NCBI GenBank assembly: GCA_043808015.1
Contig: JAZDFI010000039.1
Span: forward strand, 1-22,498
Origin: Candidatus Aenigmatarchaeota archaeon
GTDB lineage: Archaea > Aenigmatarchaeota > Aenigmatarchaeia > QMZP01 > QMZT01
Length of the DNA stretch: 22,498 nucleotides
Reading direction: 5' to 3'
The notes under the pieces are model-generated. The model was not told the DNA's origin. It saw nothing but the letters and a program-made list of their open reading frames with translations, and searched no databases. Position numbers and translations under genes: made by a program. This document shows positions 1-19,338 of this stretch, one piece after another (within the stretch, counting starts at the first letter, position 1; every line of letters starts with the position of its first letter).

Positions 1-174
1 GAAAAAAGGCTTGTTGACGGAGCAGCTGTTGTATAAGGTGCCGTCGTTGCATGACATGTTATTTATGGAAGTGTTTTGCATGCCAGTGCTGTCATGGGTT
101 TCTACAGAAATGGCAGCGAGAGGCAGGCATATGAGCGTTAAAAGAAGTACGAATGCAAGCCATCGGATTCTCAT
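1..174 (-). CDS. Secreted Cys-containing protein, N-terminal part only (runs off the window edge); not in the ORF track
   Basis: ATG at 174, open to position 1: MRIRWLAFVLLLTLICLPLAAISVETHDSTGMQNTSINNMSCNDGTLYNSCSVNKPFF. It has a signal peptide, N-x-S sequons, a C-x-DGT-x-Y-x-x-CS-x-x-KP motif and an AT-rich promoter-like region upstream. Confidence 0.8.
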   Translation of the reverse strand, partial: MRIRWLAFVLLLTLICLPLAAISVETHDSTGMQNTSINNMSCNDGTLYNSCSVNKPFF

Positions 175-219
175 AGTAATATCTTGTTTTTATCTAATTA
201 AAGAAATTGGCCGGCTAAA

Positions 220-411
220 TCAGCAGGCAGAACCGAAGCCGAAGTCTCTTCCAATCGCGACCAGGTCGAAAATATCAACCTCGCTGTTTTTGTTTATGTC
301 CGCTAGGGCATTGAAGCCGCTTTTCAGGCCGAAGTTGGTTGCGACCAAAGCCATGTCAAACAGATTAACACACCGGTCTGGAAGACCGCCGGTGGAATTG
401 GTAATGTCTCC
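220..411 (-). repeat. Dockerin module, divergent copy with an insertion in the first Ca-binding loop
   Basis: GDITNSTGGLPDRCVNLFDMALVATNFG...ADINKNSEVDIFDLVAIGRDFG is a duplicated Ca-loop/helix. Its NFGLKSGFN linker matches the NFGMKSGFD linker of the enzyme dockerins. Confidence 0.8.
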
Positions 412-1230
412 GATGCATAGCGGATCCGCGCCGTCGCAGCTTTCATCCACATTGTTATCGCAAACTTCAGTTTGCGGCGAAGGGCAACCGCCCCACGCGC
501 CGCCCGCACAGGTCTCTGAACCAGTGGCGCAGATGCCCTGATGGTTCTGTGAACATAGTCTTGAAAGGCCTTCATCAACACTACCATCACAGTCGTTGTC
601 GATATTGTCGCACACCTCTGTCTGGACGCCACCAGCAATGCAACCTCCCCATTTTTTGTCAGAGCCGCATGTCTGCGTTCCTGCGCAGCTGTTGACAATG
701 CATGGCTTAGTTTCTCCCTGAAGACATTCGTAAACTTTAGCAGTCCCATTCTGGCGAGAGTTATCGAGCGGCTGGCTGTTCATGTCGGATATCTTGAGTT
801 CTGAAAGGTTAATGTAGCCGTTGCCCGGGAATGCAACAAGCGGCTTGAGCCTGAAGGTGACATTAGCCAGCACGCCGCTGCCGCTCACGCTTCCGGAGCC
901 TATTCTGGAGCACGCAAAGTCGTTTATGACGCCAGGGACTGAAGTGTCCGGAGTCAGGCAGAACGTCCTGTCCTGCTTGCTGTTGTTGAGGAACGTCGAT
1001 TCCTGTATTCTCACGAACTCCAGCACGGTGCTGTTGTAATGCATGTCAAACTGGAAGCCGTAGACGTTGCTTGCGCCGCTTATGTTGACGTTTATCGTAA
1101 ACTGCGAAGCGCTGAATATGCTGTAGTTATAACTTGCCGGCACTATTTTAACCAGCGCTGACGAACCGGCTGAGGTAAAAAGCGATGTTAAAGATAAGCA
1201 GAAAAAAGCCAGCAGTATTTTATTTTTCAT
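220..1230 (-). CDS. Secreted cohesin + Cys-rich (MopE-like metal-binding) repeats + dockerin protein, putative adaptor scaffoldin, 336 aa
   Basis: Start revised from 1401 to the ATG at 1230 (MKNKILLAFF signal peptide; ATGA overlap with the upstream stop; GGAGAGGT SD-like site). Cohesin-like beta-sandwich (FTINVNISGASNVYGFQFDMHYNSTVLEF...GSGVLANVTFR), two EVCDN..D..CDG repeats and a C-terminal dockerin (GDITNSTGGLPDRCVNLFDM...ADINKNSEVDIFDL). Confidence 0.85.
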   Translation of the reverse strand: MKNKILLAFFCLSLTSLFTSAGSSALVKIVPASYNYSIFSASQFTINVNISGASNVYGFQFDMHYNSTVLEFVRIQESTFLNNSKQDRTFCLTPDTSVPGVINDFACSRIGSGSVSGSGVLANVTFRLKPLVAFPGNGYINLSELKISDMNSQPLDNSRQNGTAKVYECLQGETKPCIVNSCAGTQTCGSDKKWGGCIAGGVQTEVCDNIDNDCDGSVDEGLSRLCSQNHQGICATGSETCAGGAWGGCPSPQTEVCDNNVDESCDGADPLCIGDITNSTGGLPDRCVNLFDMALVATNFGLKSGFNALADINKNSEVDIFDLVAIGRDFGFGSAC

Positions 1231-2057
1231 GCAACATTTACCTCTCCGTTTGAAACAGTCGCCTGAATCTCCGCTGCCTTGGAGTTCGCCAGTTTCAGGC
1301 CGGAAATCTTTATCTGGCTCCTGCCGGAAGCGATGGCCTTGAAAGTTATCTTTTCCAGCACGCCGTTGCCCTGGACCGCGGTTCTGCCCAGCCTTGTGCA
1401 TGCGATGTTTTCGACGATGCCGCTGGAAGTTTTGTAATCAACGCAGAAAGTGTTGTCCTGGCCGTTATTGTTTAGGAAAGCGCCCTGCTCGACATTCTGG
1501 AACTGCAGGATCGCCGGGTCGTATTCCACGTCGAACTGGAAGCCGAAAAGGTCCGACGCTCCCGAAACCATGAATTCTAGCGTGACAGTCTCGCCGTTCG
1601 CCACGGACGAGGAAACGGGGTTAACGCTCACAGTAACCGGTCCGGATGGTATGTCTGGCGCAACTGGGGTTTCCTTACAGTCCTGAGGGCAAGTCGAAAC
1701 GCTTTCGCTGGAATCGCATATGCCGTTGCCGCAGAAGCCTGTAGGCAGGCCCGGCCCGATGGGCGTCTGCATGACAACCAAAACATAATAAGCCGTGACG
1801 CACAGGACGACGATTACTATGGCCGCGCCGGCCATGTAAATCTTCTTATGCGACTTTCCGCCGGCGCCGCTTTCTTTCGCGGGTTTTACATCCTGCTTCC
1901 CGACATTCGCCTTCCCGCCTCTTTGAAATTCAGAAATGGCTTCATCAACTTCGTTTTCCTGCCATCCCTTATCCACGAGCATGGCCTTGACCTGCTCCAA
2001 GTCCTTGCCGGATTTTAAGGCAGAATTAACATACGATGCCAGGCGCCCGTCAACCAT
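1227..2057 (-). CDS. Single-pass membrane protein with C-terminal cohesin domain, putative anchoring scaffoldin, 276 aa
   Basis: N-terminal helical domain (YVNSALKSGKDLEQVKAMLVDKGW), basic KSHKK followed by a TM helix (IYMAGAAIVIVVLCVTAYYVLVVM), a CGNGICDSSESVSTCPQDC motif, then cohesin (GETVTLEFMVSGASDLFGFQFDVEYDPAILQF...GNGVLEKITFKA) at about 1230-1640. Confidence 0.85.
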   Translation of the reverse strand: MVDGRLASYVNSALKSGKDLEQVKAMLVDKGWQENEVDEAISEFQRGGKANVGKQDVKPAKESGAGGKSHKKIYMAGAAIVIVVLCVTAYYVLVVMQTPIGPGLPTGFCGNGICDSSESVSTCPQDCKETPVAPDIPSGPVTVSVNPVSSSVANGETVTLEFMVSGASDLFGFQFDVEYDPAILQFQNVEQGAFLNNNGQDNTFCVDYKTSSGIVENIACTRLGRTAVQGNGVLEKITFKAIASGRSQIKISGLKLANSKAAEIQATVSNGEVNVA

Positions 2058-2096
2058 ATTAAAAATTAGGCGCTGCCAAAATAAATACTAATTTGG

Positions 2097-2255
2097 CTAC
2101 GTGAACCTGCTAGAGACGAACACGACGTCAAATATGTCTATTTCACCGCTATCGTCCGTGTCGGCTTTCTCATCAAAGCCGCTTTTCATGCCGAAGTTAT
2201 AGGCAACAATGGCAAGATCGGAGATGTCGACTTTGCCGTCGTCGTTAAGGTCAGC
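2097..2255 (-). repeat. Dockerin module, copy 1 of 3 closely similar enzyme-borne copies
   Basis: ADLNDDGKVDISDLAIVAYNFGMKSGFDEKADTDDSGEIDIFDVVFVSSRFT, with two DxN/DxDGxVDxxD loops. Confidence 0.9.
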
Positions 2256-5093
2256 AGAGCTTTTACACGAACCGTCCGCCAGGACCGTGTCTCCAGCCTC
2301 ATCACAGCATGATGAAACGCCGCCAGTCGTGATGAAGTGCTCGCCCGCGTCATCACCGCAACATTCCGTCTCACTGCCAGTGTCGTATTCCCCAAATTGC
2401 GCGCTTTCTCCTCCGGCAGTCCAATTGGCCATGCAGCCGCCGATGCATGATGTTGTATAGTTGTCGCAGTCGCGCCAATTGCTTTTATAATCCGTTTTAG
2501 CCATGCACCAGCCGTCAATGCGGCCGTCGTCTGTCAGGTCAGCGTAAGTTCCTTTCGCAAAGCACGCGTCACTGTAGACGCAATCGTCGTCATGGCCGCA
2601 GTACGCTCTGTCCGTCAGGTTGCTGCCACCGTTGATGCAGCGCTCATCCGCGATATCATCGCATGATCGGCCACCATAAGTCTTGAAGTGAATGCCGAAT
2701 TTCACGTCAAATTCTTTGAATCCCAGGCCATATGCGGGAGAGTTTGGCTGAAGCCGGAAATTGCCATTGGTATAATCGATAAACAATGGGTTGGCAATGA
2801 CAGAATTCGCGTCCAGGCCGGTGCTTTTCCATTTTTCATACGTGATTTTATTGCTTCCGTTCAGGATGCTGTAACTGCTGGTCGTGCTGAAGTAAAGATT
2901 ATTGTCGCTCTGGAAAACAGCCGGGCTGAACACGCCTCCCGGTCTGGTGGTGACATAGAACAATTCGGGGTATCTATTATTATAATAGATTATGTTGTTG
3001 CGATAAAATGTCGGCTGCGCGCCCGTGCCGACAACGACCGTAGTCTGAGATCTGTTGGCGTCCACGAAAATGTTATTTTCCATGACGTTCCCTACTCCGG
3101 CATACGTCTGTATGGCTTCCTGCACGTTGTAAAGAAGGTTGTCACGCACGGCGCAGTTGCGGCTCATGTCGTCCATGTATATGCCACGTATGATAAGACC
3201 AGTGGGGCGTGTGGTTTTGATGCCGGCATGGTGTGCAGTTGCCATGACATCGTGAACAACGTTGTTCGCAATCGTCACGGCAGAAACGTCTTCGGTTATT
3301 CCATACGTGTATATCGCCCCGCCGTCTTCGAGTTTTTGCATGGCATCATAGACGTGATTGTATGTTATGGCGCTCGCCGAAGAGACCGCTGTAAGCCTGA
3401 TGCCGATGTAAGGGCATGAGAATACTTCATTGCCGGTTATCGTCGAATTTTTAACGGCATGGGTTACAAAAATGCCGCTCCCGTCCGCAATCACGATGCC
3501 GACATCATGCACCGTATTGTTTGCAATCGTGACGTTTTCAGGATTTTTGCATATGACACCGCTTTCGCCCATATCGTAAATTTCGTTCTCAGCTACAATG
3601 CCGTTTGACAGGTAACCGATGTCAATGCCGTTTCCACCGACGCTTTTCAGCGTGTTTCCGATGAAGAACAGGTTGTCGGCATACCTGATCATGATGCCGC
3701 TCTGGTTGAAAGATGAGGGGTTGTCTGTCATGTTCCAGTCGGCATGCGCGAACGTCAGGCCTGCCATTCCGATGTACCGGACCTTGTCATTCTTCGTGCC
3801 TTCGATGATCATGAGGTCTTTCAATACAGGAACTATGAACTCGGCCTGTCCGATGTTTTCCGAATCGCGCGGCTGATAGAACAGCTTTTTCGTGCCTTTC
3901 TTGAGGTACCATTCGCCGGGGCTGTCCAGGCCGGAGAGCATGTTCTCCACATAGTAGCGCGGCTGCTGCTGTTCGGTATCATAAGACAATGTGTTGACAA
4001 ACGGTGTTGACAGCAGCGTGACTTTGTCGGACGCGACGCTGCTGATGCGCGAACGCGCCACCGACCAGCTGAGTAGCGCCACGACCTCGATGTCATTGAG
4101 ATTCGGCCAGCTGGCATCTATGTCGTTGCCGTTGAACCTGAACGCGTTGTATTTCTGGGTCACCTGGAACGTGTTGATTTTTGCACGTTCCGATCCGTGG
4201 TATATTTTGAGCGCATGGGCACCGGCAGTATAGTAGCTGATGGCGGGATCTGAAACAGAACCCGCAACGAACGGAGCACATATCTGCCACAGCCACCGCG
4301 CACCATCGCCCTTCGCCAGGACGCTGCATTTTACAGGCTCGCCGTCATCGATTTTCACGTAATAAGCCCCATTTTTCTGTCCGTCATGGAATGCGTTAAT
4401 CGCAAAAGCGTAATAGCCGGCTTCGGCTACGTTGAAAGAAAACGTCATTTTCGGCGCGTTTTCATTGAACGTTGCGTAATCGGGCGTGCCTTCCGGGACG
4501 ACTGCATACGTTATCTGGTCTTCGGTTTTTATTTCATATCCGGACGCCGTGCCGCTTTCCGCCTGTATGCTGATCACGGGCACGTCGGCGCTTTTGGCGT
4601 TGAAGTAAACGCCTTCGTTGGGCGTCCTCGCCCTGACAGCCCTCTTGTCGTTCACGAAAAGCGAATTGAAATGACCATGCTGGCCGACGAACTGCGAGAC
4701 GTCGGCCATATAGATGCCGTTCTGGTATAGTTGCCAGTCCAGCGCCAGCGTCTCGCCGCCGCTGATGATTGCTTTTTCGCCCGGGTATGATTTGTACGTG
4801 ATGGGCTTGTCCGGCGTGCCGGAATCCTCAGGTCTCAGAACAAACGGCTGAGCCAGAGGGTATGTCCCGCCGCGAATCATGATTTCCACAGGCGAAACGA
4901 ACTGTCCTGCGTTTTTCAGGCTGCGTACCGCATCCCTCGCTCTTTCCAGCGTCCTGAACGGCTGTTCCAGCGTGCCCGGATTCGCATCGTTGCCATCAGG
5001 TGAAACATAAAAATTAACTGGATATTGGGCGGCCGACGCTTGCGCAACAACAATAAGGCATGCGACAAAAAATGCGGCGAAAATGCCCTTCAT
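2097..5093 (-). CDS. Secreted right-handed beta-helix protein (GH141-like/pectin-lyase fold) with inserted CBM-like domain, Cys-rich region and C-terminal dockerin, 998 aa
   Basis: Signal peptide; FYVSPDGNDANPGTLEQPFRTLERARDAVR N-terminus; LFVNDKRAVRARTPN; YYVENMLSGLDSPGEWY; parallel beta-helix repeats (DGGAIY, GIYMDD); dockerin at 2097-2255. Confidence 0.8.
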   Translation of the reverse strand: MKGIFAAFFVACLIVVAQASAAQYPVNFYVSPDGNDANPGTLEQPFRTLERARDAVRSLKNAGQFVSPVEIMIRGGTYPLAQPFVLRPEDSGTPDKPITYKSYPGEKAIISGGETLALDWQLYQNGIYMADVSQFVGQHGHFNSLFVNDKRAVRARTPNEGVYFNAKSADVPVISIQAESGTASGYEIKTEDQITYAVVPEGTPDYATFNENAPKMTFSFNVAEAGYYAFAINAFHDGQKNGAYYVKIDDGEPVKCSVLAKGDGARWLWQICAPFVAGSVSDPAISYYTAGAHALKIYHGSERAKINTFQVTQKYNAFRFNGNDIDASWPNLNDIEVVALLSWSVARSRISSVASDKVTLLSTPFVNTLSYDTEQQQPRYYVENMLSGLDSPGEWYLKKGTKKLFYQPRDSENIGQAEFIVPVLKDLMIIEGTKNDKVRYIGMAGLTFAHADWNMTDNPSSFNQSGIMIRYADNLFFIGNTLKSVGGNGIDIGYLSNGIVAENEIYDMGESGVICKNPENVTIANNTVHDVGIVIADGSGIFVTHAVKNSTITGNEVFSCPYIGIRLTAVSSASAITYNHVYDAMQKLEDGGAIYTYGITEDVSAVTIANNVVHDVMATAHHAGIKTTRPTGLIIRGIYMDDMSRNCAVRDNLLYNVQEAIQTYAGVGNVMENNIFVDANRSQTTVVVGTGAQPTFYRNNIIYYNNRYPELFYVTTRPGGVFSPAVFQSDNNLYFSTTSSYSILNGSNKITYEKWKSTGLDANSVIANPLFIDYTNGNFRLQPNSPAYGLGFKEFDVKFGIHFKTYGGRSCDDIADERCINGGSNLTDRAYCGHDDDCVYSDACFAKGTYADLTDDGRIDGWCMAKTDYKSNWRDCDNYTTSCIGGCMANWTAGGESAQFGEYDTGSETECCGDDAGEHFITTGGVSSCCDEAGDTVLADGSCKSSADLNDDGKVDISDLAIVAYNFGMKSGFDEKADTDDSGEIDIFDVVFVSSRFT

Positions 5094-5125
5094 GCTTTAA
5101 TTTTGTGCAGCTTCGTTATAAAATA

Positions 5126-5284
5126 TCAGTCAAACCTGCTTGACACAAAAACTATGTCGAAGATGTCTATTTCCCCATTGTCATCCGTATCTGCTCTGGC
5201 GTCGAAACGGCCTTTCTTGCCGAAGTCCGCGGCGACGATGACCAAATCTGAGATGTCGACTTTGCCGTCGCCATTTAGGTCAGC
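5126..5284 (-). repeat. Dockerin module, copy 2
   Basis: ADLNGDGKVDISDLVIVAADFGKKGRFDARADTDDNGEIDIFDIVFVSSRFD. Confidence 0.9.
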
Positions 5285-8080
5285 CGCGGAGCCTCCTTCT
5301 GTCATCTGCTGGATTATCTCTTCATGTGAAAGCGTCTTTTTCCATATCCTCACATGGTCTATGGTCCCGTTGAACCAGTTGGTAGGCGACGTTCCCCTGT
5401 TTAAGCCGCCTATGTTTATGTGATGATTGTAATTGCCAACCAGATTTATGTCGCCTGTCCAGCCCTTGTCGTCCGTGCTGCCGCTTGTGCTCGCGAATGT
5501 GGTCGCCTGTTCTACGCCGTCAAGGTAGATTTTATTCCTGCTGAGGCCGTCGGAAACGAACGCTACAAAATGCCAGTTGCCGTCGTTCACGGACGTGGTG
5601 CCGTTTATGTAATTCCAGTTGCCTCCGGAGTCTGCAAAGTTCCATGCCATGTCAAGAACGTTGTTTCTTATGCGCCACACGTAATTGCTAGACAAGGATG
5701 ACGAAGTGGCATAGGCGGCGATTGTCTGCGTGGCAGATGACGAAGTTTTTATCCATGCTGTAACAGTCCCGGCGTTAGCGCTGTCCAGCGCATTGTTCGC
5801 CGCTGTCTGGATATAATCGCCGTAGCCATCGAATTTGACGGCGCCGCTAATTCTGCCTTCGGTAGTCCAGACAGTATTGTTGTAAAAAGTGCCGTTGTTG
5901 CCATATGGCGACTGGTCCACGGCTTTGGTTGGTGTCTCTCCCATAGAAAGATTGTTGTCCAGATTCATCTTTAGAAAAACGTCTGAGTTCTGGCAATCAT
6001 CACAGTCCGCCTTTTGATAAACTTCAATGGCAGTCACGGAATAAGCGAGGGACGTATAAGTGAATGATTGACCGGTTATATCAAAAGTGACTGGCTGAAT
6101 CGCAGAGATTGAACCTGTCACATCATCAGGATTTATCTGGATGCCGTTGATGTTCGCTCCGATAGTGCGGTTAAGATGTGGAGAGGTCAGAACATAAGCA
6201 TCCCCTTTAAGATTTGGCTTGGTGAAACCATCAAGGTTTACTGAGAACGTTTCATTTGTCGGCGCCCTGTTCACGATCATCAGATAAACTTTATTCCCGT
6301 CATCTGATTTTGAGCTGAACACATAAACATCTAGAATGTTCGGAGAGAAAGAGGCAGTCACATCCAAAACTTTTGTGCCAAAATGATTCGCGAAGAGGAA
6401 GAAGGAATAGTAAGGCGCACGCGGTGTGTAATTGCCTGAGATTACGCCACCAATATCACCCAATAACCACCATCTTGTTGAAAACTCTGCGTCGTAGTTT
6501 GCCATTATTCCCAGCATGTTGGCAGTCCATAATGCATCTGCAAAAACACCATTGATTGCCGGGCAGGAGCCGCCGCATGCACCATATTCGCTTATCGAAA
6601 GCTGGGTATTGCTGTTATAATCACTAGTCAAGGATTTTAACTTGTTCAATCTCGCATCAAACCCGGAAAGGTCATTGCTATAGCCTTGGAGTTCGCCGTA
6701 CGCATCGCCATCATAGCTCAACAATTGGTTGATGGCTTCATTCAGAGGTTCAGGCTGGGTAACGGAACGGTAATGATGGACATCAAGAACGTCGACTTTA
6801 GGCCCTTGCGTATTCATTAACTCTGTTGCGAATCCATCAAACAGAAAACCCGGTGAAAACCCCAGTATGCCGGGGGAAATTGCTTTTATGGCCGAGTAAT
6901 ATTCTCCGTAACGAGCAGCATATCCTTGCACATCATTGGACGCAATTATATCCAGCCACTCTTTCCACCTCCATCTCCATCCTTCCGGCTCATTCCCGAT
7001 CTGCCAGTACTTTATATCATAATTCTTCTCTACATTGGCATAACTTACAAGGTCTGCCTGCCTCTGCCGGTTAGCGACATCTCTTGAGTCGTCCCAGGGA
7101 AAAGCTCCGGCATTAAGGGTTATCAGAGGCTCCGCCCCCACAGCCGTTGCGAAGGTTACGAAAGAATCAATATCAGAAGGTGTTATTGTCTCGGTGTAAG
7201 GAATTGGAGGGAACCAAAGATTATCAAATCCGCCGTCTAAAATCAGCTCCTCTCCTCCTTCGGCTTTCTTAAGGCTGACGTTGTCCATCCAGAATGTGCC
7301 TGTTGCGTATTGAAGCCCCGTGCGTAATTCAATCCATTCAATTGTTTTGCCCTGTTTCGGGGTGTACACAAAACTTACAGTCATCTTGCGGTTGGCGGTC
7401 GTCCCCTCTCCGACATCAATCTCGACCAGGTTAGTTTGATTGCCATTTGAGCCGTCAACAGTTAGAATAACTCCTTCGCCGTCAGAATATAAAACGGTCA
7501 TCATGAGACCTTTCGTTTCCCAGAAATTATTCGAAGAAACATCATTGCCCTGTACATAAGCTGTCAAGTTGTATCTGACGCCCGGCGTCAGTTTAGAAGG
7601 ATCCAGAAATTGTTGCACGACAAATAAAGCCTTAGGATCATCATTCACAAGCTTCAGTCTTCCATTCTCAATAGACGAGCCCTTCACCATTTCAAAACTA
7701 GGCCCGTATCTTATCCATCTATTGGGCTGACTCCTTTTCCAATAGAATTCATCGCTCCAGGCGCCGCCAGGGTACCTTAATACTCCTGGTTTTATTGCTT
7801 TGGTAAGCGCTATCATCCTGGGATCATTATAAAAATCGATATTTATTATGCGAAACCAAGCCATCGTCGGAGTAATAAGCACGTTCTGTCCGTAAAGCTT
7901 GTTGTCAATCTGGGCAATAACTCTGGTCGTGTTGACATTTACTGTATAGGTGGGTGAAGCAGTCGCGAGCCCTGCCTTGTTTCCGCCAGAATCATCTTTA
8001 AAAGAAATAAGACCTGGGCTGAAGACCATGACTATTATTGCAATCAAGGTTACGGCAGTAACCAGAAAAAGCCTTTTCAT
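5126..8080 (-). CDS. Exported clan GH-A glycoside hydrolase (GH51/GH44/GH79-like) with CBM-like insert, LamG domain and C-terminal dockerin, 984 aa
   Basis: N-terminal hydrophobic signal or anchor; KPGVLRYPGG..SD..YW motif; YWQIGNEP (acid/base); LSISEYG (nucleophile); C-terminal beta-sandwich; LamG at about 5306-5974; dockerin at 5126-5284. Confidence 0.82.
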   Translation of the reverse strand: MKRLFLVTAVTLIAIIVMVFSPGLISFKDDSGGNKAGLATASPTYTVNVNTTRVIAQIDNKLYGQNVLITPTMAWFRIINIDFYNDPRMIALTKAIKPGVLRYPGGAWSDEFYWKRSQPNRWIRYGPSFEMVKGSSIENGRLKLVNDDPKALFVVQQFLDPSKLTPGVRYNLTAYVQGNDVSSNNFWETKGLMMTVLYSDGEGVILTVDGSNGNQTNLVEIDVGEGTTANRKMTVSFVYTPKQGKTIEWIELRTGLQYATGTFWMDNVSLKKAEGGEELILDGGFDNLWFPPIPYTETITPSDIDSFVTFATAVGAEPLITLNAGAFPWDDSRDVANRQRQADLVSYANVEKNYDIKYWQIGNEPEGWRWRWKEWLDIIASNDVQGYAARYGEYYSAIKAISPGILGFSPGFLFDGFATELMNTQGPKVDVLDVHHYRSVTQPEPLNEAINQLLSYDGDAYGELQGYSNDLSGFDARLNKLKSLTSDYNSNTQLSISEYGACGGSCPAINGVFADALWTANMLGIMANYDAEFSTRWWLLGDIGGVISGNYTPRAPYYSFFLFANHFGTKVLDVTASFSPNILDVYVFSSKSDDGNKVYLMIVNRAPTNETFSVNLDGFTKPNLKGDAYVLTSPHLNRTIGANINGIQINPDDVTGSISAIQPVTFDITGQSFTYTSLAYSVTAIEVYQKADCDDCQNSDVFLKMNLDNNLSMGETPTKAVDQSPYGNNGTFYNNTVWTTEGRISGAVKFDGYGDYIQTAANNALDSANAGTVTAWIKTSSSATQTIAAYATSSSLSSNYVWRIRNNVLDMAWNFADSGGNWNYINGTTSVNDGNWHFVAFVSDGLSRNKIYLDGVEQATTFASTSGSTDDKGWTGDINLVGNYNHHINIGGLNRGTSPTNWFNGTIDHVRIWKKTLSHEEIIQQMTEGGSAADLNGDGKVDISDLVIVAADFGKKGRFDARADTDDNGEIDIFDIVFVSSRFD
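5306..5974 (-). repeat. LamG/concanavalin-A-like domain, copy A of a ~670-bp direct repeat
   Basis: Aligns by eye with 9412-10084 at both DNA and protein level, with long identical stretches (GDYIQTAANNALDSAN, SSNYVWRIRNNVLDM, YNHHINIGGLNRGTSP). Confidence 0.9.
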
Positions 8081-8122
8081 ATTATATTATTTGCATTGAT
8101 TTAATTAATTATGTCGGGCAGG

Positions 8123-8281
8123 TCACGTAAACTTGCTCGCCACAAAAACTATATCAAATATGTCCACTGCTCCGCTGCCGTCGGTGTCTGTTTTTTCGTT
8201 AAAACCGCTTGCCTTGCCGAAGTTATAGGCGACAATAGCGAGGTCTGAAATATCGACCACACCGTCGCCATTAAGGTCTGC
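8123..8281 (-). repeat. Dockerin module, copy 3
   Basis: ADLNGDGVVDISDLAIVAYNFGKASGFNEKTDTDGSGAVDIFDIVFVASKFT. Confidence 0.9.
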
Positions 8282-11158
8282 GGCGGAGCTGACTGAAATT
8301 GTTTTTGAAATTATGTACACCTTTCCATCATCGCAGCTGGCAATTATGTCACCCTTACCATCGCTGTTAGCATCGCCGAATTCTATGAACTTTATCGAAT
8401 TCGGCAGCTTCACGTCCCCTGTGATTTTTCCGTTTTTATCGATTATTGAAACGCCGCCAACATCATAATTGTTTATTGGATCCGTGTCTTTGGTGCCATA
8501 GCCGACGATGATTTCCTTTTCGCCGTCATTGTTTATGTCGCCCGTAACAACAGACCATGCAGGATACGGGAACGGTATTTTCCAAATCGTGTTGCCGCTC
8601 GAGTCGAGCAATGTAACATTGTTTGAACCCTGTGCCACGTGTTTTCTAACCGCGGATACCACGACAATCTCCAGGCCGCTTCGCGATGCTGCCAGTTCAT
8701 CGATGCCGACGCCAAGCGTGTCCTCTCCTATGGCTTTGGTCCATAACTCAACACCGTTTTTGTCCAAAAGGCGGACGTTGGGAAAGCCTCTAACCTGACC
8801 ATCCCAAGTATACCACCCGCCAACGACGGCTATCTCATTGCTGCCGTCATTGTTGACGTCGGCGATGCGTGCCTGCTGCAATTTGCACAAATGACCGTCG
8901 CACGTGTATGTTTTATTCCATATCGCGTTTCCTGCTGAATCCAGCAAAACTACCTCACCGTTGCCGGTATTGCCGCCTCCTACCAAAAGTATCTCTTTTC
9001 CGGGATTGCTTGTAACGTCTGCGATTCTGACGCCTCTTATCATCCCATTAGGGTATGTGTATGTCCACAAAAGATTGCCGTTGTTGTCCAACAGTTCAAA
9101 CGGTATGGGGTTCTCTCCCAAAAAGCCAGCTGCCACTTCGTTGTCGCCATCATTGTCGACATCGCCTATATCGACAGCGGCTGCATAATTTCTGTTAGGC
9201 GACTGATGACTCCATAAAACATTCCCGGCTGAATTGAAAGCGAAAAACTCGCCATAAACAGGAGTGATGCTATAATCGGTTCCTCCACCAAGCACGATTT
9301 CATTGCCAGCATCGCCGGCCAGATTGCCGATTGCCACGCCAACTCCCCATACATACGGAGTGGGCAGAGTTCTCGAAACGACATTAAATTCTGGAGAAAA
9401 CTGCTCATTGAACATCTGTAATATTTCCTGTTGCGAAAGCGCCGTCTTCCATATCCTCACTTGGTCTATGGTGCCGTTGAACCAGCCCTGTGGTGACGTC
9501 CCCCTGTTCAGGCCGCCTATGTTTATGTGATGATTGTAACTTCCGACCAGATTTATGTTGCCGGTCCAGCCCTTATCGTCCGTGCTGCCGCCTGTGCTCG
9601 TGAACGCGGCGGCCTCCTCGACGCCGTCGAGATAGATTTTATTCCTGTTAAGACCGTCTGAAACGAAAGCGACAAAATGCCAGCTGCCATCGTTCACTGG
9701 TGTCGTGCTGTTTATCAGGTTCCAGTTGCCACCGGCGCCTGCGAAGTTCCATCCCATATCAAGTACATTGTTCCTTATGCGCCAGACGTAATTGCTGGAC
9801 ATTAATGATGACGTGGTGTATGCAGCAATAGTCTGTGTGGTGGCGGATGACGAAGTCTTTATCCAGGCCGTCACGGTTCCGGAATTCGCGCTGTCCAGCG
9901 CATTGTTCGCAGCAGTCTGGATATAATCACCGTCCCCGTCAAATCTCGCAGCGTTGCCGTACTTTGCCTCGATTGTCCATGTCACGTTGTTGTATGATGT
10001 GCCGTTGTTGCTGTAAGTGGACTGATCCAAAACTTTTGTGGTGGTTTCGCCCAGAGCAATGTTGTTGTCAAGGTTCATCTTGAGGTAAGTGTTAACATCG
10101 CTTACAGGTTTAACGTCTTTTAATTCGCCCTGTAGTGTCAGCAAACCTATTTCACGCGCGCTAATAGGATTAGTCGTGTTGCCTATCGAGCCCACTGCAT
10201 ACATATAATACAAGTCAGGTTCTACGGGCAAAACGGACATGGTCTGCGCGCCTATCAAACCATTCCAGTCATTTTCAATCACCGGATTATTACCGTATCT
10301 TGTCCATTCAAACAAATCAGTGCTCGTCGCATAAGATGAACGATGATTTGAATAAGCATCAACCTCGTCAAAATAGGCATACCATTTATCATCAGGCCCT
10401 TTTTGGGAAACTAATCTAGCTATGTATGCTCTCTGTTCATCCCATGGTGGATTTTGATTGTAAGTGATGACAGGATTATTCGTGTATTTTGTCCATACTT
10501 TTAAGTCAGGACTTGTTGCAACACCTTCTCCCTCATTAGCATAGCCAGTGCCATAATCACCTGCTGAGAACAGTATAACCCATTTAGAGATAGATGCATC
10601 CCAAACCGGCTGGCTTGTGTGACATATCCATTTTCTATCCCATCCGCTTGAGGAGCGATCAATGACTGGCATGTTAGAATACCTTGTGAAGTGATACCCG
10701 TCAGTCGACGTTGCTAACCCAATCACCTCATTTACCAAGTTATCGTGCCTTGCCGTGTAAAACATGTAGAAAACTCCATTGTCATAAATTACAGAAGGCG
10801 ACCAGACAAATCCCCCCTCCCATGCGTTAGCCGGGTTTTCTTCTAAAATCGGATTGCCTGCATATTTAGTGAAATGTATGCCGTCAGTAGAAGTTGCGAG
10901 ACCTATTGCATAAATACCACCGTATTCACCCCCAACTCTTCTGCCAGAGTAGTATAAAAAATAAGTACCATCATGATACACAACAGAGCCGCCGCCCAGC
11001 GACTGTTCATCCCATGCGCCAACAGGCCCCACTGTTAGTATGGGACTGTTTTCATGCCATGTCCATGTATCAGTGGAAGAAGCGGACACTTTAGCAGCAT
11101 CGAAAAACAACGCTGCTAGAAGTGAAAGAAAAATAGTCGCCAGAAAGCGTCTTTTCAT
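8123..11158 (-). CDS. Secreted multidomain protein: five-bladed beta-propeller (GH32/43/130-like fold) + LamG + seven FG-GAP/VCBS repeats + dockerin, 1011 aa
   Basis: Signal peptide; repeated IGLATSTDG.HFT.Y..NP(I/V) blades; LamG at about 9412-10084; seven GD(V/I)xNDGxxEI-type repeats at about 8300-9400; dockerin at 8123-8281. Confidence 0.82.
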   Translation of the reverse strand: MKRRFLATIFLSLLAALFFDAAKVSASSTDTWTWHENSPILTVGPVGAWDEQSLGGGSVVYHDGTYFLYYSGRRVGGEYGGIYAIGLATSTDGIHFTKYAGNPILEENPANAWEGGFVWSPSVIYDNGVFYMFYTARHDNLVNEVIGLATSTDGYHFTRYSNMPVIDRSSSGWDRKWICHTSQPVWDASISKWVILFSAGDYGTGYANEGEGVATSPDLKVWTKYTNNPVITYNQNPPWDEQRAYIARLVSQKGPDDKWYAYFDEVDAYSNHRSSYATSTDLFEWTRYGNNPVIENDWNGLIGAQTMSVLPVEPDLYYMYAVGSIGNTTNPISAREIGLLTLQGELKDVKPVSDVNTYLKMNLDNNIALGETTTKVLDQSTYSNNGTSYNNVTWTIEAKYGNAARFDGDGDYIQTAANNALDSANSGTVTAWIKTSSSATTQTIAAYTTSSLMSSNYVWRIRNNVLDMGWNFAGAGGNWNLINSTTPVNDGSWHFVAFVSDGLNRNKIYLDGVEEAAAFTSTGGSTDDKGWTGNINLVGSYNHHINIGGLNRGTSPQGWFNGTIDQVRIWKTALSQQEILQMFNEQFSPEFNVVSRTLPTPYVWGVGVAIGNLAGDAGNEIVLGGGTDYSITPVYGEFFAFNSAGNVLWSHQSPNRNYAAAVDIGDVDNDGDNEVAAGFLGENPIPFELLDNNGNLLWTYTYPNGMIRGVRIADVTSNPGKEILLVGGGNTGNGEVVLLDSAGNAIWNKTYTCDGHLCKLQQARIADVNNDGSNEIAVVGGWYTWDGQVRGFPNVRLLDKNGVELWTKAIGEDTLGVGIDELAASRSGLEIVVVSAVRKHVAQGSNNVTLLDSSGNTIWKIPFPYPAWSVVTGDINNDGEKEIIVGYGTKDTDPINNYDVGGVSIIDKNGKITGDVKLPNSIKFIEFGDANSDGKGDIIASCDDGKVYIISKTISVSSAADLNGDGVVDISDLAIVAYNFGKASGFNEKTDTDGSGAVDIFDIVFVASKFT
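9412..10084 (-). repeat. LamG/concanavalin-A-like domain, copy B
   Basis: Matches copy A. LamG hallmarks are TVTAWIK, WHFVAFV, KIYLDG and FNGTIDQVRIW. Confidence 0.9.
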
Positions 11159-11191
11159 ATTATACTATTTGCGTTTTAATTAGATAAATTT

Positions 11192-13540
11192 CTATGCTTC
11201 CGCCATCTTCGTCACGCCGTCGCTCTCCTTGTCCCTTGTCAGATGATAGGTCGAGCCCGTTATGTAATCCGACAGGCGCTCCTCGTGCGTGATGAGGAAG
11301 ACCTGGTCTATGATGTTCTCCATTCTGTCTTTGAGGACGGAGCCGAAATGCTCTATGGCGCTCCTGTCGAGGTTGTGCGTCGGTTCATCGAGGATGAGCC
11401 ATCTCAGGTTCGGGGTAAATGCGAGCGCGAAGGCTATGCGCAAGGCGAGGCACGCGAGCGAGCGTTCTCCGCCTGAAACAATATCCGCGTTCATCCATTC
11501 CTTTCTGCTCTTCAGCTGCAGGACATAATCCTTGTCGACCAGCAGGCGCACTTCGCTGAAATCGTCGTATGGGTAAAGCTCGCCCCATATCTGGCTCATT
11601 ATGAAGTTGACCGTTTTTAGAAATTCGTCTCTCAGCTGGTCCTGCGTGCTGCGCAGGACGTTGACAAATACATCCATCGATTCCGATATGCTGGCGTAGT
11701 TCTCGATGTCCTGCTTGTATTTAGCGAGCGTGCTCGCCTGCTCTTCTATCTCTTTCGCATCCGTCTTCTTTTCAGCCATCCTCTGCGAAATTCCCGTCAG
11801 CTTCGCCTCTATGCCTCTCGACCTGGCGATTGTTTCCTGGAGTTCGCTTCTCATTACTTTTATGTCGTGGCCGGTGATCTTCTTCTCGAGCGCCTTCCTC
11901 TGCTTCGCTGCCTCGCCCAGATGCGTCGCCGCCTGCTCCATCTCTTTCAGCAGCGTTTCTAGCGAATCTCGCTCCTTGAGGACGTCTTCCGAGCGTTCTC
12001 TGGCGACTCTCAGCTTTTCGAGCGAACGTCTCGACGCCGCCTCCTTGCGTTCTTGGACGCGTATCTGTGATACGACCGTCTTTATCTCGCTGTCCAGAAG
12101 CTTGCGTTTCGAAGTCGCTTCCCTCATTCTGCCGGACATGAATTCGAAATCCTTAAGGTCGCGTTTGATTTCTGCATACTCAAGAACGCTCTTCCTGAAG
12201 CCGTCGCTAGCGTCGCTTTCCTTCGCGACTTTCGCCTTGGTCTCGCGTATCCGAAGGTCGATATCGACGATATGCTTCAGCCGATGGTTCGTTAGGTCCT
12301 TCTTTTTCTCTTCTTCGATGTGCGAATCGCAGACCGGACATTTGTCTCCCGCTCGTCTCAGGTCGGACAGGCTCTTTTCCATCTCGGTCTTCTCGGCCAT
12401 GAGCACATAAAGAGTCTTCTTGAGCGCTTCGACGTTTTCGAGCATGGCGGCCAGCTTCTTTTCCGGCTCGTTGCCAAGCGCCTTGCCCAGTATTTTCAGC
12501 CGCCTGTCCTTGCCTTTCATGCCGTCGAGCTTCGCCTGCGTATCCTTCATCTGGTCGCGCAGGAAGAGCATCTTGCCGTTCATGAGCGACAGAGTCTCTC
12601 TCAGCACGCGGATTTCCCTTTCTCCTGAGGCCAGCGCAGTCTCGAGTTTCGTTATATCCGATGCCATCGACTTCAGCGACTCGGGGTCGGCCTTGGCCGC
12701 GCCGAGCTTTTTTCTCTTAATGTCCGCCTGTCGCTTCATTTCGTCCAGGCGGGATGCCAGCGATTCGCTTTTTCGGACCGCATCGTTGAGCATGTCATGC
12801 GACGCTTCGTATTGGACGACGTTTTCGGAAAGCTTCTTGCGCTCCTTCTCGAGAGAACCGAGCGTCTTGTCTAGGTCGCGTTTCTCACCCTCGAGTTTCT
12901 TTATCTCGTTCTCGAACGCGACCAGCTTCTCGTCGAGCTTGCGCGTCTTCAGGTCTTCGACGACCCGCACCATTTCCTTGCGTCTGGCCATGATGTTGTT
13001 CTTTATCGAGACCGCCGACTCGCGCGCCCGCTCGTAGCGGTCGAGCTTGAGCATCTCGTCGATCTGCTGCATGCGCTTGCCCTTTGGGATTTGCAGGAAG
13101 TAGTCGAGCGCGTTCTGCTCGGAATAGATAGCGCGCTGGAAAAGATCGTAATCCATTTGAAGAATCCTCTCGACTTCGCGGGTCACGCCCTGCGGGCTGA
13201 CTTCGAGCAGCTTGCCGTCCTCGCGTATCTCGGCGGCGACCGTCCCTTTCTCGCGTTCAATCGTCCTGCGCACGGTGTATTTCTTGCCGTCGCCGGCTTC
13301 GAACTCGACCTCGACCATCGCATGGCGCTTTTTCTGCGGTTTCGACATGATCAGGTCGTCGAGAGCCAGCTTCTTCGAGCCGAGCGCGGAAAACGTGCCG
13401 AAAAGCGCGAATGCAATCGCCTGCATCACGCTCGTCTTGCCGGAGCCCATTATGCCTATCAGCGCGTTGACGCCTTTCGAGAACTTGAGTTCCGAATCCA
13501 GATGCGACTTCCAGTTGACCATCTTTACGCGCGTAATCAT
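11192..13540 (-). CDS. rad50: Rad50/SbcC-type DNA double-strand-break repair ATPase, 782 aa
   Basis: Walker A GIMGSGKTS, Q-loop YSEQN, long coiled coil with central CPVC zinc hook, signature SGGE, Walker B LILDEP, H-loop ITH. Confidence 0.92.
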   Translation of the reverse strand: MITRVKMVNWKSHLDSELKFSKGVNALIGIMGSGKTSVMQAIAFALFGTFSALGSKKLALDDLIMSKPQKKRHAMVEVEFEAGDGKKYTVRRTIEREKGTVAAEIREDGKLLEVSPQGVTREVERILQMDYDLFQRAIYSEQNALDYFLQIPKGKRMQQIDEMLKLDRYERARESAVSIKNNIMARRKEMVRVVEDLKTRKLDEKLVAFENEIKKLEGEKRDLDKTLGSLEKERKKLSENVVQYEASHDMLNDAVRKSESLASRLDEMKRQADIKRKKLGAAKADPESLKSMASDITKLETALASGEREIRVLRETLSLMNGKMLFLRDQMKDTQAKLDGMKGKDRRLKILGKALGNEPEKKLAAMLENVEALKKTLYVLMAEKTEMEKSLSDLRRAGDKCPVCDSHIEEEKKKDLTNHRLKHIVDIDLRIRETKAKVAKESDASDGFRKSVLEYAEIKRDLKDFEFMSGRMREATSKRKLLDSEIKTVVSQIRVQERKEAASRRSLEKLRVARERSEDVLKERDSLETLLKEMEQAATHLGEAAKQRKALEKKITGHDIKVMRSELQETIARSRGIEAKLTGISQRMAEKKTDAKEIEEQASTLAKYKQDIENYASISESMDVFVNVLRSTQDQLRDEFLKTVNFIMSQIWGELYPYDDFSEVRLLVDKDYVLQLKSRKEWMNADIVSGGERSLACLALRIAFALAFTPNLRWLILDEPTHNLDRSAIEHFGSVLKDRMENIIDQVFLITHEERLSDYITGSTYHLTRDKESDGVTKMAEA

Positions 13541-17096: not shown

Positions 17097-17510
17097 ATGA
17101 CAATAGTTGGCTTGAGTCTGAATTCAGTCGAAGCGAGGAGGGACAGGGAACAGATGTCCGGCGCTGAGATAAAGGTCAATTCCGTGCCGAGGATAAACGA
17201 CATACGCGAGGTTTCAGTTCCGTCCCTTGGCAGCAAGAAGGTCCTGTCGATGGACTTCGAGTTCGTCACGACTTACGACCCGAAAGTCGGCGAAATCAAA
17301 ATCGGCGGAGACATTCTTTACCTCACGGATGACAACAAGGCTATGCTCAAACAGTGGGAGAAGGAGAAGAAAATCCCGGAGAAGCCGTCGCTCGAAATCC
17401 TTAACTACCTGTTCAGGAGATGCCTGATAAAGGTTTCGGTGATAGCCGAGGATTTGCAACTGCCTCCGCCGCTGCCGATGCCTACGGTCAAACCGAAGGC
17501 GGACAAGTAA
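17097..17510 (+). CDS. Conserved archaeal hypothetical protein, 137 aa
   Basis: Strong SD (GGAGGT) just upstream; beta-strand-rich N-terminal part, then helices and a C-terminal LQLPPPLPMP motif; T-rich tract after the stop. Confidence 0.85.
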   Translation: MTIVGLSLNSVEARRDREQMSGAEIKVNSVPRINDIREVSVPSLGSKKVLSMDFEFVTTYDPKVGEIKIGGDILYLTDDNKAMLKQWEKEKKIPEKPSLEILNYLFRRCLIKVSVIAEDLQLPPPLPMPTVKPKADK

Positions 17511-18152: not shown

Positions 18153-18696
18153 TTGCTTTCAACAGCAGCGGGAATTGTTTGTAGCCGGTTTTCTCGTTGA
18201 AGTGGCCTGCGCCTTTTATCACTTTGAGATTTACGTCGAGTTTGCATGCGATCTCCTGTCCGCGGGCGACTGACAGGTATGGGTCGTCATTCCCGTGCCA
18301 GACCTCGAAATGCACGCAGTTCTTTTTTATCTTATTCCAGTCGAATCCGCTTTCGAAGAACGAGCGGTTTATGACGTCGAATTTTTCGTTGCCGACGCCG
18401 CCTATGAAAGACGAAATGAGAAAAGCCGCTTTTATCGGCTTGCCGAGCGACTCGATTTTTTTCAGGACGAATGCGCAGCTTATGCTGTGGCCGACAAGAA
18501 TTGTATCCGGCCCGATGTGTTTGTCGAGTTTCTCTAGAACTTTCAGCCAGTTGTCCAAGCTCTGGCCATTCGGAGTCGGAAACTGCGGCACGAAAACCTT
18601 GCATCCTGACTTTTCGAGCTCGCGGCCAAGCCACATGTACCAGTTTTCTTCGGGGTGGCCGTAAACGCCGTGGCAGATTATAACATTCGTTGTCAT
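18136..18696 (-). CDS. RBBP9/YdeN-family alpha/beta serine hydrolase, 186 aa
   Basis: IICHG...NWYMWL, nucleophile elbow GHSIS, HGNDDPY (Asp), GAGHFN (His). Overlaps the CYTH gene convergently by 17 bp. Confidence 0.9.
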   Translation of the reverse strand: MTTNVIICHGVYGHPEENWYMWLGRELEKSGCKVFVPQFPTPNGQSLDNWLKVLEKLDKHIGPDTILVGHSISCAFVLKKIESLGKPIKAAFLISSFIGGVGNEKFDVINRSFFESGFDWNKIKKNCVHFEVWHGNDDPYLSVARGQEIACKLDVNLKVIKGAGHFNEKTGYKQFPLLLKAIKKFV

Positions 18697-18721
18697 GAAC
18701 TCACAAAATATTCGCTTCGAC

Positions 18722-18937
18722 TCACTGCCTCTTGACCAGCCTGATGTCCTCGCCTGTGACCGTCTTTCTGCCTGCGTGCTTGGCGAACTTGACCGCGTCC
18801 TGGGCGATGCCGTCGGACATTCCCTCTATTACGATGGCGAACTCCTTCATCGCCGACTTCGAGACGCGCTTCGCTCCCGCGTCCTTGAGTATGCGCTCGA
18901 AAGGCGCAAGCGGCAATCGCTGTTTCTTTTCAGACAT
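18722..18937 (-). CDS. Archaeal histone (HMf-like), 71 aa
   Basis: LPLAPFERILKDAGAKRVS...AKHAGRKTVTGEDI; SD AGGAGG upstream. Confidence 0.96.
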   Translation of the reverse strand: MSEKKQRLPLAPFERILKDAGAKRVSKSAMKEFAIVIEGMSDGIAQDAVKFAKHAGRKTVTGEDIRLVKRQ

Positions 18938-19170
18938 TTCTATTCCTCCTTGAAAATGATGCGAAAGGGATTCTCTTTCTTTTATTTTTGTAAATAATCG
19001 TTTATAAACGTTGTTTGGCGCGAAATGGGACGGAAAAAACTTTTTTTAACGGTTTGCGCATGCGCGCACGCATAAAGAAACTAAAAAGGAGAAACGGGAG
19101 ACTTTATTTTTTTCAAAAGTTTATAAGGTAGTTTAAACAAAAGGTATAATTAAACCGTTGGAGGTAAAAC
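18938..19170. promoter_or_regulatory. Divergent promoter region between the histone and the small zinc-ribbon gene
   Basis: TTTATAAA at 19001-19008, CAAAAG-TTTATAAG (BRE-TATA) at about 19114-19127, GGAGG SD sites on both sides, A/T tracts and a central alternating purine-pyrimidine tract. Confidence 0.7.
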
Positions 19171-19311
19171 ATGTCACAGGCTTATTGCGTGAAATGCAGG
19201 AAAAAAGTGGAAATAAAAAACGAGCAGAGCGTAAAACTCAAGAATGGTAAACCAGCGAAGAAAGGACTCTGCCCGGACTGCGGCACAAAAGTTTTCAAGA
19301 TTGGCGGTTAA
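19171..19311 (+). CDS. Small basic zinc-ribbon protein (DUF5679-like), 46 aa; below the ORF-track cutoff
   Basis: MSQAYCVKCRKKVEIKNEQSVKLKNGKPAKKGLCPDCGTKVFKIGG has CxxC and CxxC motifs; GGAGGT SD at 19160-19165. Confidence 0.9.
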   Translation: MSQAYCVKCRKKVEIKNEQSVKLKNGKPAKKGLCPDCGTKVFKIGG

Positions 19312-19338
19312 ACTCGATTGTTGCATTGTTCGGACTGT

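Follow-up and report, generated by a model that had tools for sequence, protein, structure and literature searches.

The stretch of DNA analysed here (the window) is the entire contig C39 (22,498 nt) of genome G000, which probably belongs to a DPANN-type archaeon of the Aenigmarchaeota, and its left half encodes five proteins, W1 to W5, that carry cohesin and dockerin modules. Taken together, these genes seem to form a cassette for surface display that is native to the genome, can be exchanged and uses two plug-and-socket codes, a reading that the sequence evidence modestly favours. The modules themselves are almost certainly genuine. It is very likely that these cohesins retain the cargo proteins W3, W4 and W5 on the surface of the cell that makes them, and the particular wiring, in which cargo docks one to one on the adaptor W1 and W1 in turn on the anchor W2, is fairly probable. 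In the proposed arrangement, W2 would sit in the membrane with its cohesin facing outward, the adaptor-class dockerin of W1 would bind this cohesin, and the Cys-rich repeats of W1 would serve as a stalk. The cohesin at the tip of W1 would then bind the cargo-class dockerin of W3, W4 or W5, singly and in a calcium-dependent manner. The module types have long been known, and non-cellulosomal and archaeal examples have already been published. What appears to be new here is the split of the dockerins into two sequence classes, together with evidence on their pairing, and the swappable slot that the genes occupy. The original prediction had noticed neither the classes nor the swapping.

Six-frame and profile searches of the G000 assembly (934,049 bases, 90.7% complete) found two cohesins and four dockerins, every one at this locus. 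This is the genome-wide count that the original prediction had called for, and the anchor, the adaptor and the cargo that it had proposed are all present, as W2, W1 and W3 to W5, respectively. Both cohesins score above the Pfam Cohesin cut-off of 24.1 bits (57.7 bits for W2 and 40.6 bits for W1). In the AlphaFold model of W1, the N-terminal part is a beta-sandwich predicted with confidence, and cohesins are its best matches in the PDB (6kgd, E 7e-11); clostridial cohesins are among the top matches, and the archaeal cohesin 2xdh from Archaeoglobus is found at rank 6 (E 8.5e-10). The beta-sandwiches that had been read as cohesin folds are therefore borne out as such, the check by structure model covering W1 and the cohesin of W2 resting on its sequence. 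In the same model, the C-terminal 70 residues of W1, dockerin included, have a predicted local distance difference test (pLDDT) score below 50, and the dockerin fold is unconfirmed by it.

W2 is read from hydropathy and sequence as a membrane anchor bearing one cohesin. It comprises a cytoplasmic helical motif (residues 1-46), one transmembrane helix within residues 70-101, a small Cys module and the C-terminal cohesin (DNA 1233-1631), and its hydropathy profile has a single strong hydrophobic segment (peak 2.76) following the charged N-terminus. This architecture is kept in 7 related proteins and in 11 full or partial database relatives. The helical motif, of about 45 residues (window 1920-2057), also recurs cytoplasmically in several membrane-anchored surface proteins, and its profile finds the G000 protein at C9:3-401 (E 1e-9) as well as the C-terminal tail of the PKD protein encoded on contig C38 (E 0.004), which is described below. 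This motif may resemble the N-terminal domain of Pex14, and the proteins could share it as a tag for localisation or assembly. Look-alikes of the W2 N-terminus in the ESM Atlas are unnamed proteins of Nanobdellota and Minisyncoccota with scores of at most 0.84, which are leads only.

W1 presents a signal peptide, the cohesin (residues ~24-167), a Cys-rich stalk of MopE-like repeats (MopE motif, Pfam 31.1 bits) and an adaptor-class dockerin (DNA ~238-414). Its start is most likely at 1230, with a 4-nt overlap with W2 as in the relatives, and not at 1401. The cohesins of W1 and W2 are 36% identical over 122 residues. In the cohesin tree, the nine W1-type rows form a supported clade (96/98), and the anchors are separate with weaker support (83/84). 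Adaptor dockerins also have an invariant Cys just ahead of the first helix and a further Cys near the C-terminus (window 220-420), which are mostly missing from cargo dockerins; this pair could possibly form a disulfide clasp.

The C-termini of W3, W4 and W5 each carry two intact D-x-[DN]-x-[DNS]-G-x-[VI]-D-I-x-D loops and are mutually identical at 35-40 of 53 residues, in agreement with the earlier description of three exported cargo proteins of about 1000 residues with closely similar C-terminal dockerins. Against the W1 dockerin, the identity is 20-23 of 53 residues. The Pfam scan that had been suggested for these modules succeeded in part: both cohesins were recovered, and of the whole proteins only W4 passed the Dockerin_1 cut-off (22.9 bits), W5 (22.1) and W3 (21.1) being just under it and W1 having no Dockerin_1 match at E 0.01. 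In the six-frame search of the genome with Dockerin_1, the three cargo dockerins were above the cut-off and that of W1 reached 13.5 bits. The W1 dockerin was recognised at E 1.7e-20 by a profile made without Pfam input, W1 itself being in that profile. Sequence matches of the cargo dockerins in the PDB were 2y3n_B and 2jnk.

The comparison of 32 dockerin matches from seven genomes (two fragments unread and one cut sequence dropped) revealed that the last helix separates two classes. The six complete cohesin-bearing proteins all end in xx[DN][FYL]G, the adaptor class, and 21 of the 23 cohesin-less proteins end in [FY]xxx[RK][FL][TSD], the cargo class. The three dockerins of another genome, G007, were excluded from this count as a third type; no cohesin was found in this 81%-complete genome.

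Evidence on how the two classes pair comes from relatives. The genome G043 has a single cohesin match, which belongs to the W1 clade and has its own C-terminal membrane helix and no dockerin. It also has 18 dockerin matches, many of them in tandem arrays; three are partial and were left unread, and the 15 full ones are all of the cargo class. Because of this co-occurrence, the W1-type cohesin would pair with the cargo class, which would leave the W1 dockerin for W2. Moreover, G042 and G044 have a directly anchored W1-type cohesin, and all three dockerins in each of them are cargo-like. As a system in its own right, G043 (locus L058) looks like a larger, simpler version of the one described here, with one anchored cohesin and many dockerins.

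Several observations weigh against this wiring. In G009 there are six cargo-class dockerins, and the sole adaptor cohesin found is a sister subtype outside the W1 clade. G045 has an anchor and an adaptor, but its four dockerins are all of one symmetric class. G041 has a W1-type adaptor and no W2-type anchor recognised among its four cohesin matches, and G042 has an anchor-type cohesin and no adaptor-class dockerin among three. Two of the 23 cohesin-less proteins bear adaptor-class dockerins, and these may dock straight on the anchor. The W1 dockerin has a 6-residue insertion within its first calcium loop that is absent from its orthologues (alignment with six of them). Finally, the dockerin classes were set after inspecting the sequences, and the genomes are kin, so that the counts are not independent.

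Some of these points would be expected if the display were flat or promiscuous, with cargo docking directly on W2, or any cohesin pairing with any dockerin, and W1 acting merely as an optional extender. G045 runs anchor, adaptor and cargo with one dockerin class, G009 manages six cargo-class dockerins without a W1-clade cohesin, and the cohesins of W1 and W2 have much of their predicted binding-face strands in common. Such a display is nevertheless regarded as rather unlikely, given that the class split is kept in every adaptor and in nearly all cargo proteins and that the lone W1-type cohesin of G043 is accompanied by cargo-class dockerins only. The same G043 genome points to cargo as the ligand of the W1-type cohesin and argues against a head-to-tail polymer, in which the dockerin of one W1 would bind the cohesin of the next and cargo would cap the tips of a fibre rooted on W2. 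That the cohesin and the dockerin lie at opposite ends of the stalk, that the G041 adaptor lacks a recognised W2-type anchor and that G045 has a single dockerin class would all suit a polymer, which is considered very improbable. Apart from its adaptor, G041 encodes a 328-residue protein (L056:10886-11872) in which the adaptor layout is reversed: a cargo-class dockerin lies internally, and a domain weakly resembling a cohesin (Pfam E 5.5e-4) comes after it.

The proposed wiring from cargo through W1 to W2 has a counterpart within one protein. The archaeal protein P0135 unites in a single chain the enzyme domain of W4 (60% identity over 656 residues), Cys repeats like those of W1 (E 3e-18), a membrane helix and a tail that scores 21.0 bits against the cytoplasmic motif of W2, versus at most 9.7 bits in 1000 shuffles. 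P0135 has no cohesin or dockerin. In G000, two large surface proteins with open frames of 2478 and 1159 codons (C34:21383-28816 and 31222-34698) have Cys repeats of the W1 kind immediately ahead of a C-terminal membrane helix. Judging from this fusion and from the C34 proteins, the three-gene relay resembles a stalked surface protein of one chain that has been divided into separate parts.

Regarding the cargo, W3 consists of a signal peptide, a GH141-like right-handed beta-helix, a Cys-rich linker and the cargo-class dockerin. It matches Pfam GH141_M with 38.3 bits (cut-off 27) and, in the PDB, 9rx2 (E 1.7e-41) and BT1002 (5mqp, E 1.7e-33 for the whole protein). W3 residues D590 and D641 align, with a 5-residue offset, to D523 and D564 of BT1002, within a third aligned stretch that is weak on its own (10 bits); mutagenesis showed that both BT1002 residues are needed for activity (PMC10154630). 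One GH141 member is a xylanase (PMC10154630), so an action of W3 on hemicellulose would be possible.

W4 presents an N-terminal hydrophobic signal, a clan GH-A barrel (GH79/GH51-like) with an inserted segment of about 200 residues, a LamG domain and the cargo-class dockerin. By its sequence matches in the PDB it is equally distant from heparanase (E 2e-5) and from a GH51 arabinofuranosidase (E 2e-4). The putative acid/base E364 (in GNEP) and nucleophile E498 (in SEY) align to the GNEP and GET motifs of heparanase, whose aligned glutamates we take to be catalytic. There is no Pfam GH match for W4 at E 0.01, and NCBIfam ArfA gives 28 bits against a cut-off of 625. A homologue search with residues 295-690 returned nine proteins, W4 itself counted, and the closest relative is archaeal.

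W5 carries a signal peptide, a five-bladed beta-propeller (GH130/32/43/137-like), a LamG domain, a region of FG-GAP repeats and the cargo-class dockerin. Its propeller was modelled with a pLDDT of 86.7 and a predicted template modelling (pTM) score of 0.89, and the top Foldseek matches are GH130 phosphorylases and BT_0996 (TMq 0.72; E 5e-16 to GH130), with a structure-based identity of at most 20%. A 34-row alignment of full-length multi-domain homologues (mean identity 16%) has no invariant acid beyond the structural SxDG turns. The uncharacterised, repetitive group to which the propeller belongs has no conserved catalytic acids, and the W5 propeller may be a lectin or a hydrolase. As the matches of W3, W4 and W5 are distant, their substrates cannot be transferred from the known families. 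No CBM3, GH5, GH9 or GH48 match was found by Pfam in W1 to W5. A Pfam match of W4 and W5 to the clostridial neurotoxin receptor-binding domain was discarded; it is at or below the cut-off, overlaps a far stronger LamG match and is read as a fold-level cross-match.

The cargo genes also keep what may be traces of their history. The LamG-coding segments of W4 and W5 are alike (Table 1), and so are their leaders (8062-8107 and 11140-11182, 82.6% identical by self-blastn), which could reflect a duplication followed by exchange of the N-terminal domains. The guanine plus cytosine (GC) content at third codon positions is 0.46 and 0.39 in the enzyme domains of W4 and W5, 0.62 in the shared LamG and 0.69 in the median of 353 long open reading frames (ORFs) of the genome. 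Values as low are found in 7 of the 353 ORFs for W4 and in 4 for W5, domains being compared here with whole ORFs. Foreign catalytic domains may thus have been grafted onto native W4 and W5 tails; the closest relative of the W4 domain is itself archaeal.

The cassette is native to the archaeon and exchangeable. Among the 19 relatives with a Rad50 match, the Rad50 region was fetched for 15. The cassette adjoins Rad50 in three of them (G003, G009 and G014), four (G001, G002, G008 and G012) have an empty site where Rad50 directly abuts a PKD gene, and in the other eight neither the cassette nor an abutting PKD gene was seen in the fetched stretch. The G003 cassette crosses a contig gap, and both of its ends are collinear with the window, with DNA 79-86% identical. 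The cargo differs between carriers, including GH5 (in G003), GHL15, beta-helices and LamG, and further types across carriers are FG-GAP, LamG, discoidin and GDSL proteins. In G001 and G013 the anchor-adaptor pair is located at another site and the cargo is scattered over the genome. With G000 counted, 16 of 41 relatives have cohesins and 15 have dockerins of this kind, which also turn up in 23 of 301 genomes from a sample of the phylum. Within the family, both modules are present in G000, G001, G003, G009, G013 and G014.

Since the same gene order is kept beside Rad50 in these relatives, the locus is not a chimera, and the left half of the window is native, as the original prediction had assumed. 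A chimeric join or bacterial contamination could be suspected from the low third-position GC of the W5 and W4 enzyme domains, but the collinear DNA of G003, the source label of the nearest W2 relative and an assembly contamination of 0.58% leave this explanation with hardly any probability. The nearest relatives of W1 (70% identity) and W2 (89%) are both labelled Ca. Aenigmarchaeota, which is in line with the DPANN-like host that had been proposed; the lineage of G000 was judged from these labels and the housekeeping genes rather than from a species tree.

The six genes of positions 1-11158, which directly follow Rad50, are all on the minus strand, in the order W5, W4, W3, W2, W1 and W0, with intergenic gaps of at most 45 nt. 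The co-orientation that had been noticed is hence confirmed, but the sixth gene is not a part of the set. W0 (174-1) is the cut N-terminus of a gene that runs on into contig C38 (tblastn; 141-nt identical overlap) and encodes a PKD/He_PIG/Big_9 (PKD/Ig) surface protein with a C-terminal membrane helix, present also in relatives without the cassette. Profile searches of this protein for cohesin and dockerin found neither, and from its sequence it is a conserved flank and not a component of the system.

Other carriers present irregular genes at this slot. A fused two-cohesin scaffoldin considered for G009 and G014 (frames of 623 and 615 residues) was rejected because a stop codon separates two genes. 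In G003, the reading frame of the sole cargo gene after Rad50 (L036:10494-11994) is interrupted between its Ig-like N-terminal part and its GH5 domain, the sign of either a pseudogene or an assembly error. In G014, a cargo ORF of 1140 residues without Pfam match is followed by an ORF of 113 residues with a dockerin in another frame (L030:2621-6251); the two are probably one broken gene.

As for its purpose, the cargo would bind and cut fucose-, uronate- or mannose-containing glycans of the host surface or of the biofilm matrix, by which the cell could reach and hold its host. This reading considers the cargo as predicted GH141-like and GH79/51-like hydrolases and a propeller, with LamG on two of the three, and a role in contact with the host or matrix rather than in feeding is slightly preferred. 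Seven targeted searches, which are not a full annotation and leave out the roughly 9% of the genome that is missing, did not find in G000 an ABC importer permease, the sugar-binding family PF01547, the PfkB, ROK or ADP-dependent sugar kinases, uronate isomerase or pyruvate kinase. Contact is favoured over feeding since these sugar importer and kinase genes were not found. A symbiotic lifestyle has also been proposed for the Aenigmarchaeota as a phylum (PMC8407114). Both the cargo and the sugar-uptake genes not found are in line with the earlier suggestion that the targets are host glycans or extracellular polymers and not plant biomass, which is kept here as a conjecture.

The opposite possibility is a nutritional mini-cellulosome that digests polysaccharide beside the cell, the sugars being imported. 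By alignment, W3 and W4 keep their catalytic acids, and G000 has 5-6 matches to transporters of the major facilitator superfamily (MFS), enolase and PGI/PMI, so that some use of sugar is conceivable. Furthermore, a pair of one cohesin and one dockerin boosts cellulase activity in Cellulosilyticum (PMC13487519), and Aenigmarchaeota have been reported with glycoside hydrolases and glycolytic genes (PMC8407114). Feeding is still held to be unlikely, considering the importer, the three sugar kinase families and the uronate isomerase that were not found in G000, that ROK is present only in G009 among the six cassette carriers of the family, that UxaC is present in none of the 41 relatives, and the fast turnover of cargo, which includes FG-GAP, LamG, discoidin and GDSL proteins.

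It could also be that the modules act as adhesins by docking on matching modules of the host cell, such as surface proteins of methanogens or of anaerobic methanotrophic archaea (ANME). Proteins with cohesins or dockerins are numerous in ANME and other archaea, some of them with S-layer domains (PMC9012536), and a Methanosarcina control genome has both families. However, a candidate partner for each dockerin class is encoded in the locus itself, and cohesins and dockerins occur together in the six family genomes listed above, so docking across species has very little to recommend it.

Beyond the role in contact, a more speculative history, which is possible but doubtful, is that a host-dependent DPANN lineage split a single-chain enzyme-stalk-anchor protein into three interchangeable pieces with two orthogonal codes, and that newly acquired glycan-cutting domains are swapped into a fixed slot as a kit for host recognition and penetration. 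If this were true, the list of cargo would predict the surface glycans of the host. Little is settled about the way in which DPANN archaea find, hold and pass the outer layers of host cells, and few of the molecular candidates lend themselves to tests without a culture. This locus offers small soluble modules and a sharp pairing prediction between two cohesins and two dockerin classes. It also offers two putative enzymes that keep their catalytic residues, and knowing their substrates would give a pointer to the host or the matrix. If the wiring is right, it would be a case of archaeal adaptor-type switching without a multi-cohesin scaffold, and synthetic enzyme assembly would gain a new orthogonal pair of cohesin and dockerin.

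The right half of the window is made up of archaeal housekeeping genes, as the original prediction had noticed, among them aIF2-gamma (607.7 bits, NCBIfam cut-off 315) and a lipid gene (Table 1). Adjoining aIF2-gamma, a gene of 137 residues (17097-17510) has 72-98% identity to its counterparts in those relatives that showed it, and no Pfam or NCBIfam match. The region 18700-19340 has a lower GC content (0.45 in 18501-19500), one doubtful ORF of 100 residues and no tRNA; the tRNA scan found none in the whole window. A scan for sigma-70 promoters (18 versus 14.1 expected) and terminators (14 versus 11.7) gave no signal, with a model that is ill-suited to archaea.

Table 1. Positions of the cassette genes and other features in the window.
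Feature	Position	Strand	Description
W0	1..174	-	First 58 codons of the flanking surface protein gene
W1	220..1230	-	Monovalent adaptor, 336 aa
W2	1227..2057	-	Anchor, 276 aa
W3	2097..5093	-	Cargo, 998 aa
W4	5126..8080	-	Cargo, 984 aa
W4 LamG-coding DNA	5309..5974	-	78.9% identical over 672 nt to W5 9416-10084 (self-blastn)
W5	8123..11158	-	Cargo, 1011 aa
Rad50-like ATPase	11192..13540	-	Pfam; best NCBIfam match PRK03918, below cut-off; conserved upstream flank of the cassette (synteny)
Geranylgeranylglyceryl phosphate (GGGP) synthase	20290-21066		Above its NCBIfam cut-off; archaeal lipid gene, reduced DPANN genome

Compared with known systems, the locus does not seem to be a cellulosome, because a primary scaffoldin with several cohesins was not found in G000 (90.7% complete), where the two cohesins are on separate genes; it would rather function like the anchor-adaptor tier of one. 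The term cellulosome-like, used in the original prediction, is thus too strong: each cohesin protein has one cohesin, and the dockerin proteins of G000 include no clustering scaffold, CBM3 or cellulase. What the locus has in common with cellulosomes are cohesin modules and two-loop dockerins on predicted enzymes, a secreted monovalent adaptor with one cohesin and one dockerin (W1), and, with a topology read from hydropathy and sequence, a non-SLH (S-layer homology) anchoring scaffoldin having at least one cohesin and an envelope anchor (W2). The closest parallel is the ScaC-type adaptor of Ruminococcus and the single-cohesin anchor (categories 5 and 6 of PMC11557425): W1 likewise has one cohesin and one dockerin, and W2 one cohesin and a membrane helix. 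Type-switching has been proposed for monovalent adaptors (PMC11557425), and the two dockerin classes suggest something similar here; a W1 whose cohesin and dockerin belong to different binding pairs would be favoured by the classes and their co-occurrence, and G009, G041 and G045 fit it poorly. Unlike complex cellulosomes, the locus has no primary or polyvalent scaffoldin or CBM3 and only four dockerins in all, and its host is archaeal. Unlike cellulosome anchors, which use SLH domains, a sortase signal or a C-terminal helix, W2 has an N-terminal helix and a cytoplasmic motif, and, unlike cellulosome adaptors, W1 has a Cys-rich stalk.

The titles and abstracts found in the literature describe no such system in DPANN archaea, although supplements and subscription papers may list such proteins. 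The minimal system of Cellulosilyticum lentocellum (PMC13487519) is alike in its very few side-by-side modules and in a one-to-one complex, which is here a proposal; that pair is a cellulase heterodimer of a cellulolytic bacterium, and neither a membrane anchor nor an adaptor tier nor a second class of dockerins is mentioned in the abstract. For Omnitrophota, a role as adhesins has also been suggested for dockerins outside cellulosomes (PMC10066038). Archaeal cohesin and dockerin proteins, which the original prediction knew from Archaeoglobus alone, have been published for ANME as well, with up to five cohesins per protein (PMC9012536). Archaeoglobus fulgidus (2xdh) and ANME-1/-2 resemble the present case in their archaeal host, in the match of the cohesin fold and in their variable partners. 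In ANME, the dockerins are mainly found on ABC substrate-binding and S-layer proteins (PMC9012536), whereas the present locus, in a DPANN archaeon, has single cohesins and cargo that resembles glycoside hydrolases. With respect to the enzymes, the folds are like those of GH141 (BT1002), GH79/GH51 and GH130/BT_0996, and the catalytic acids are kept in W3 and W4.

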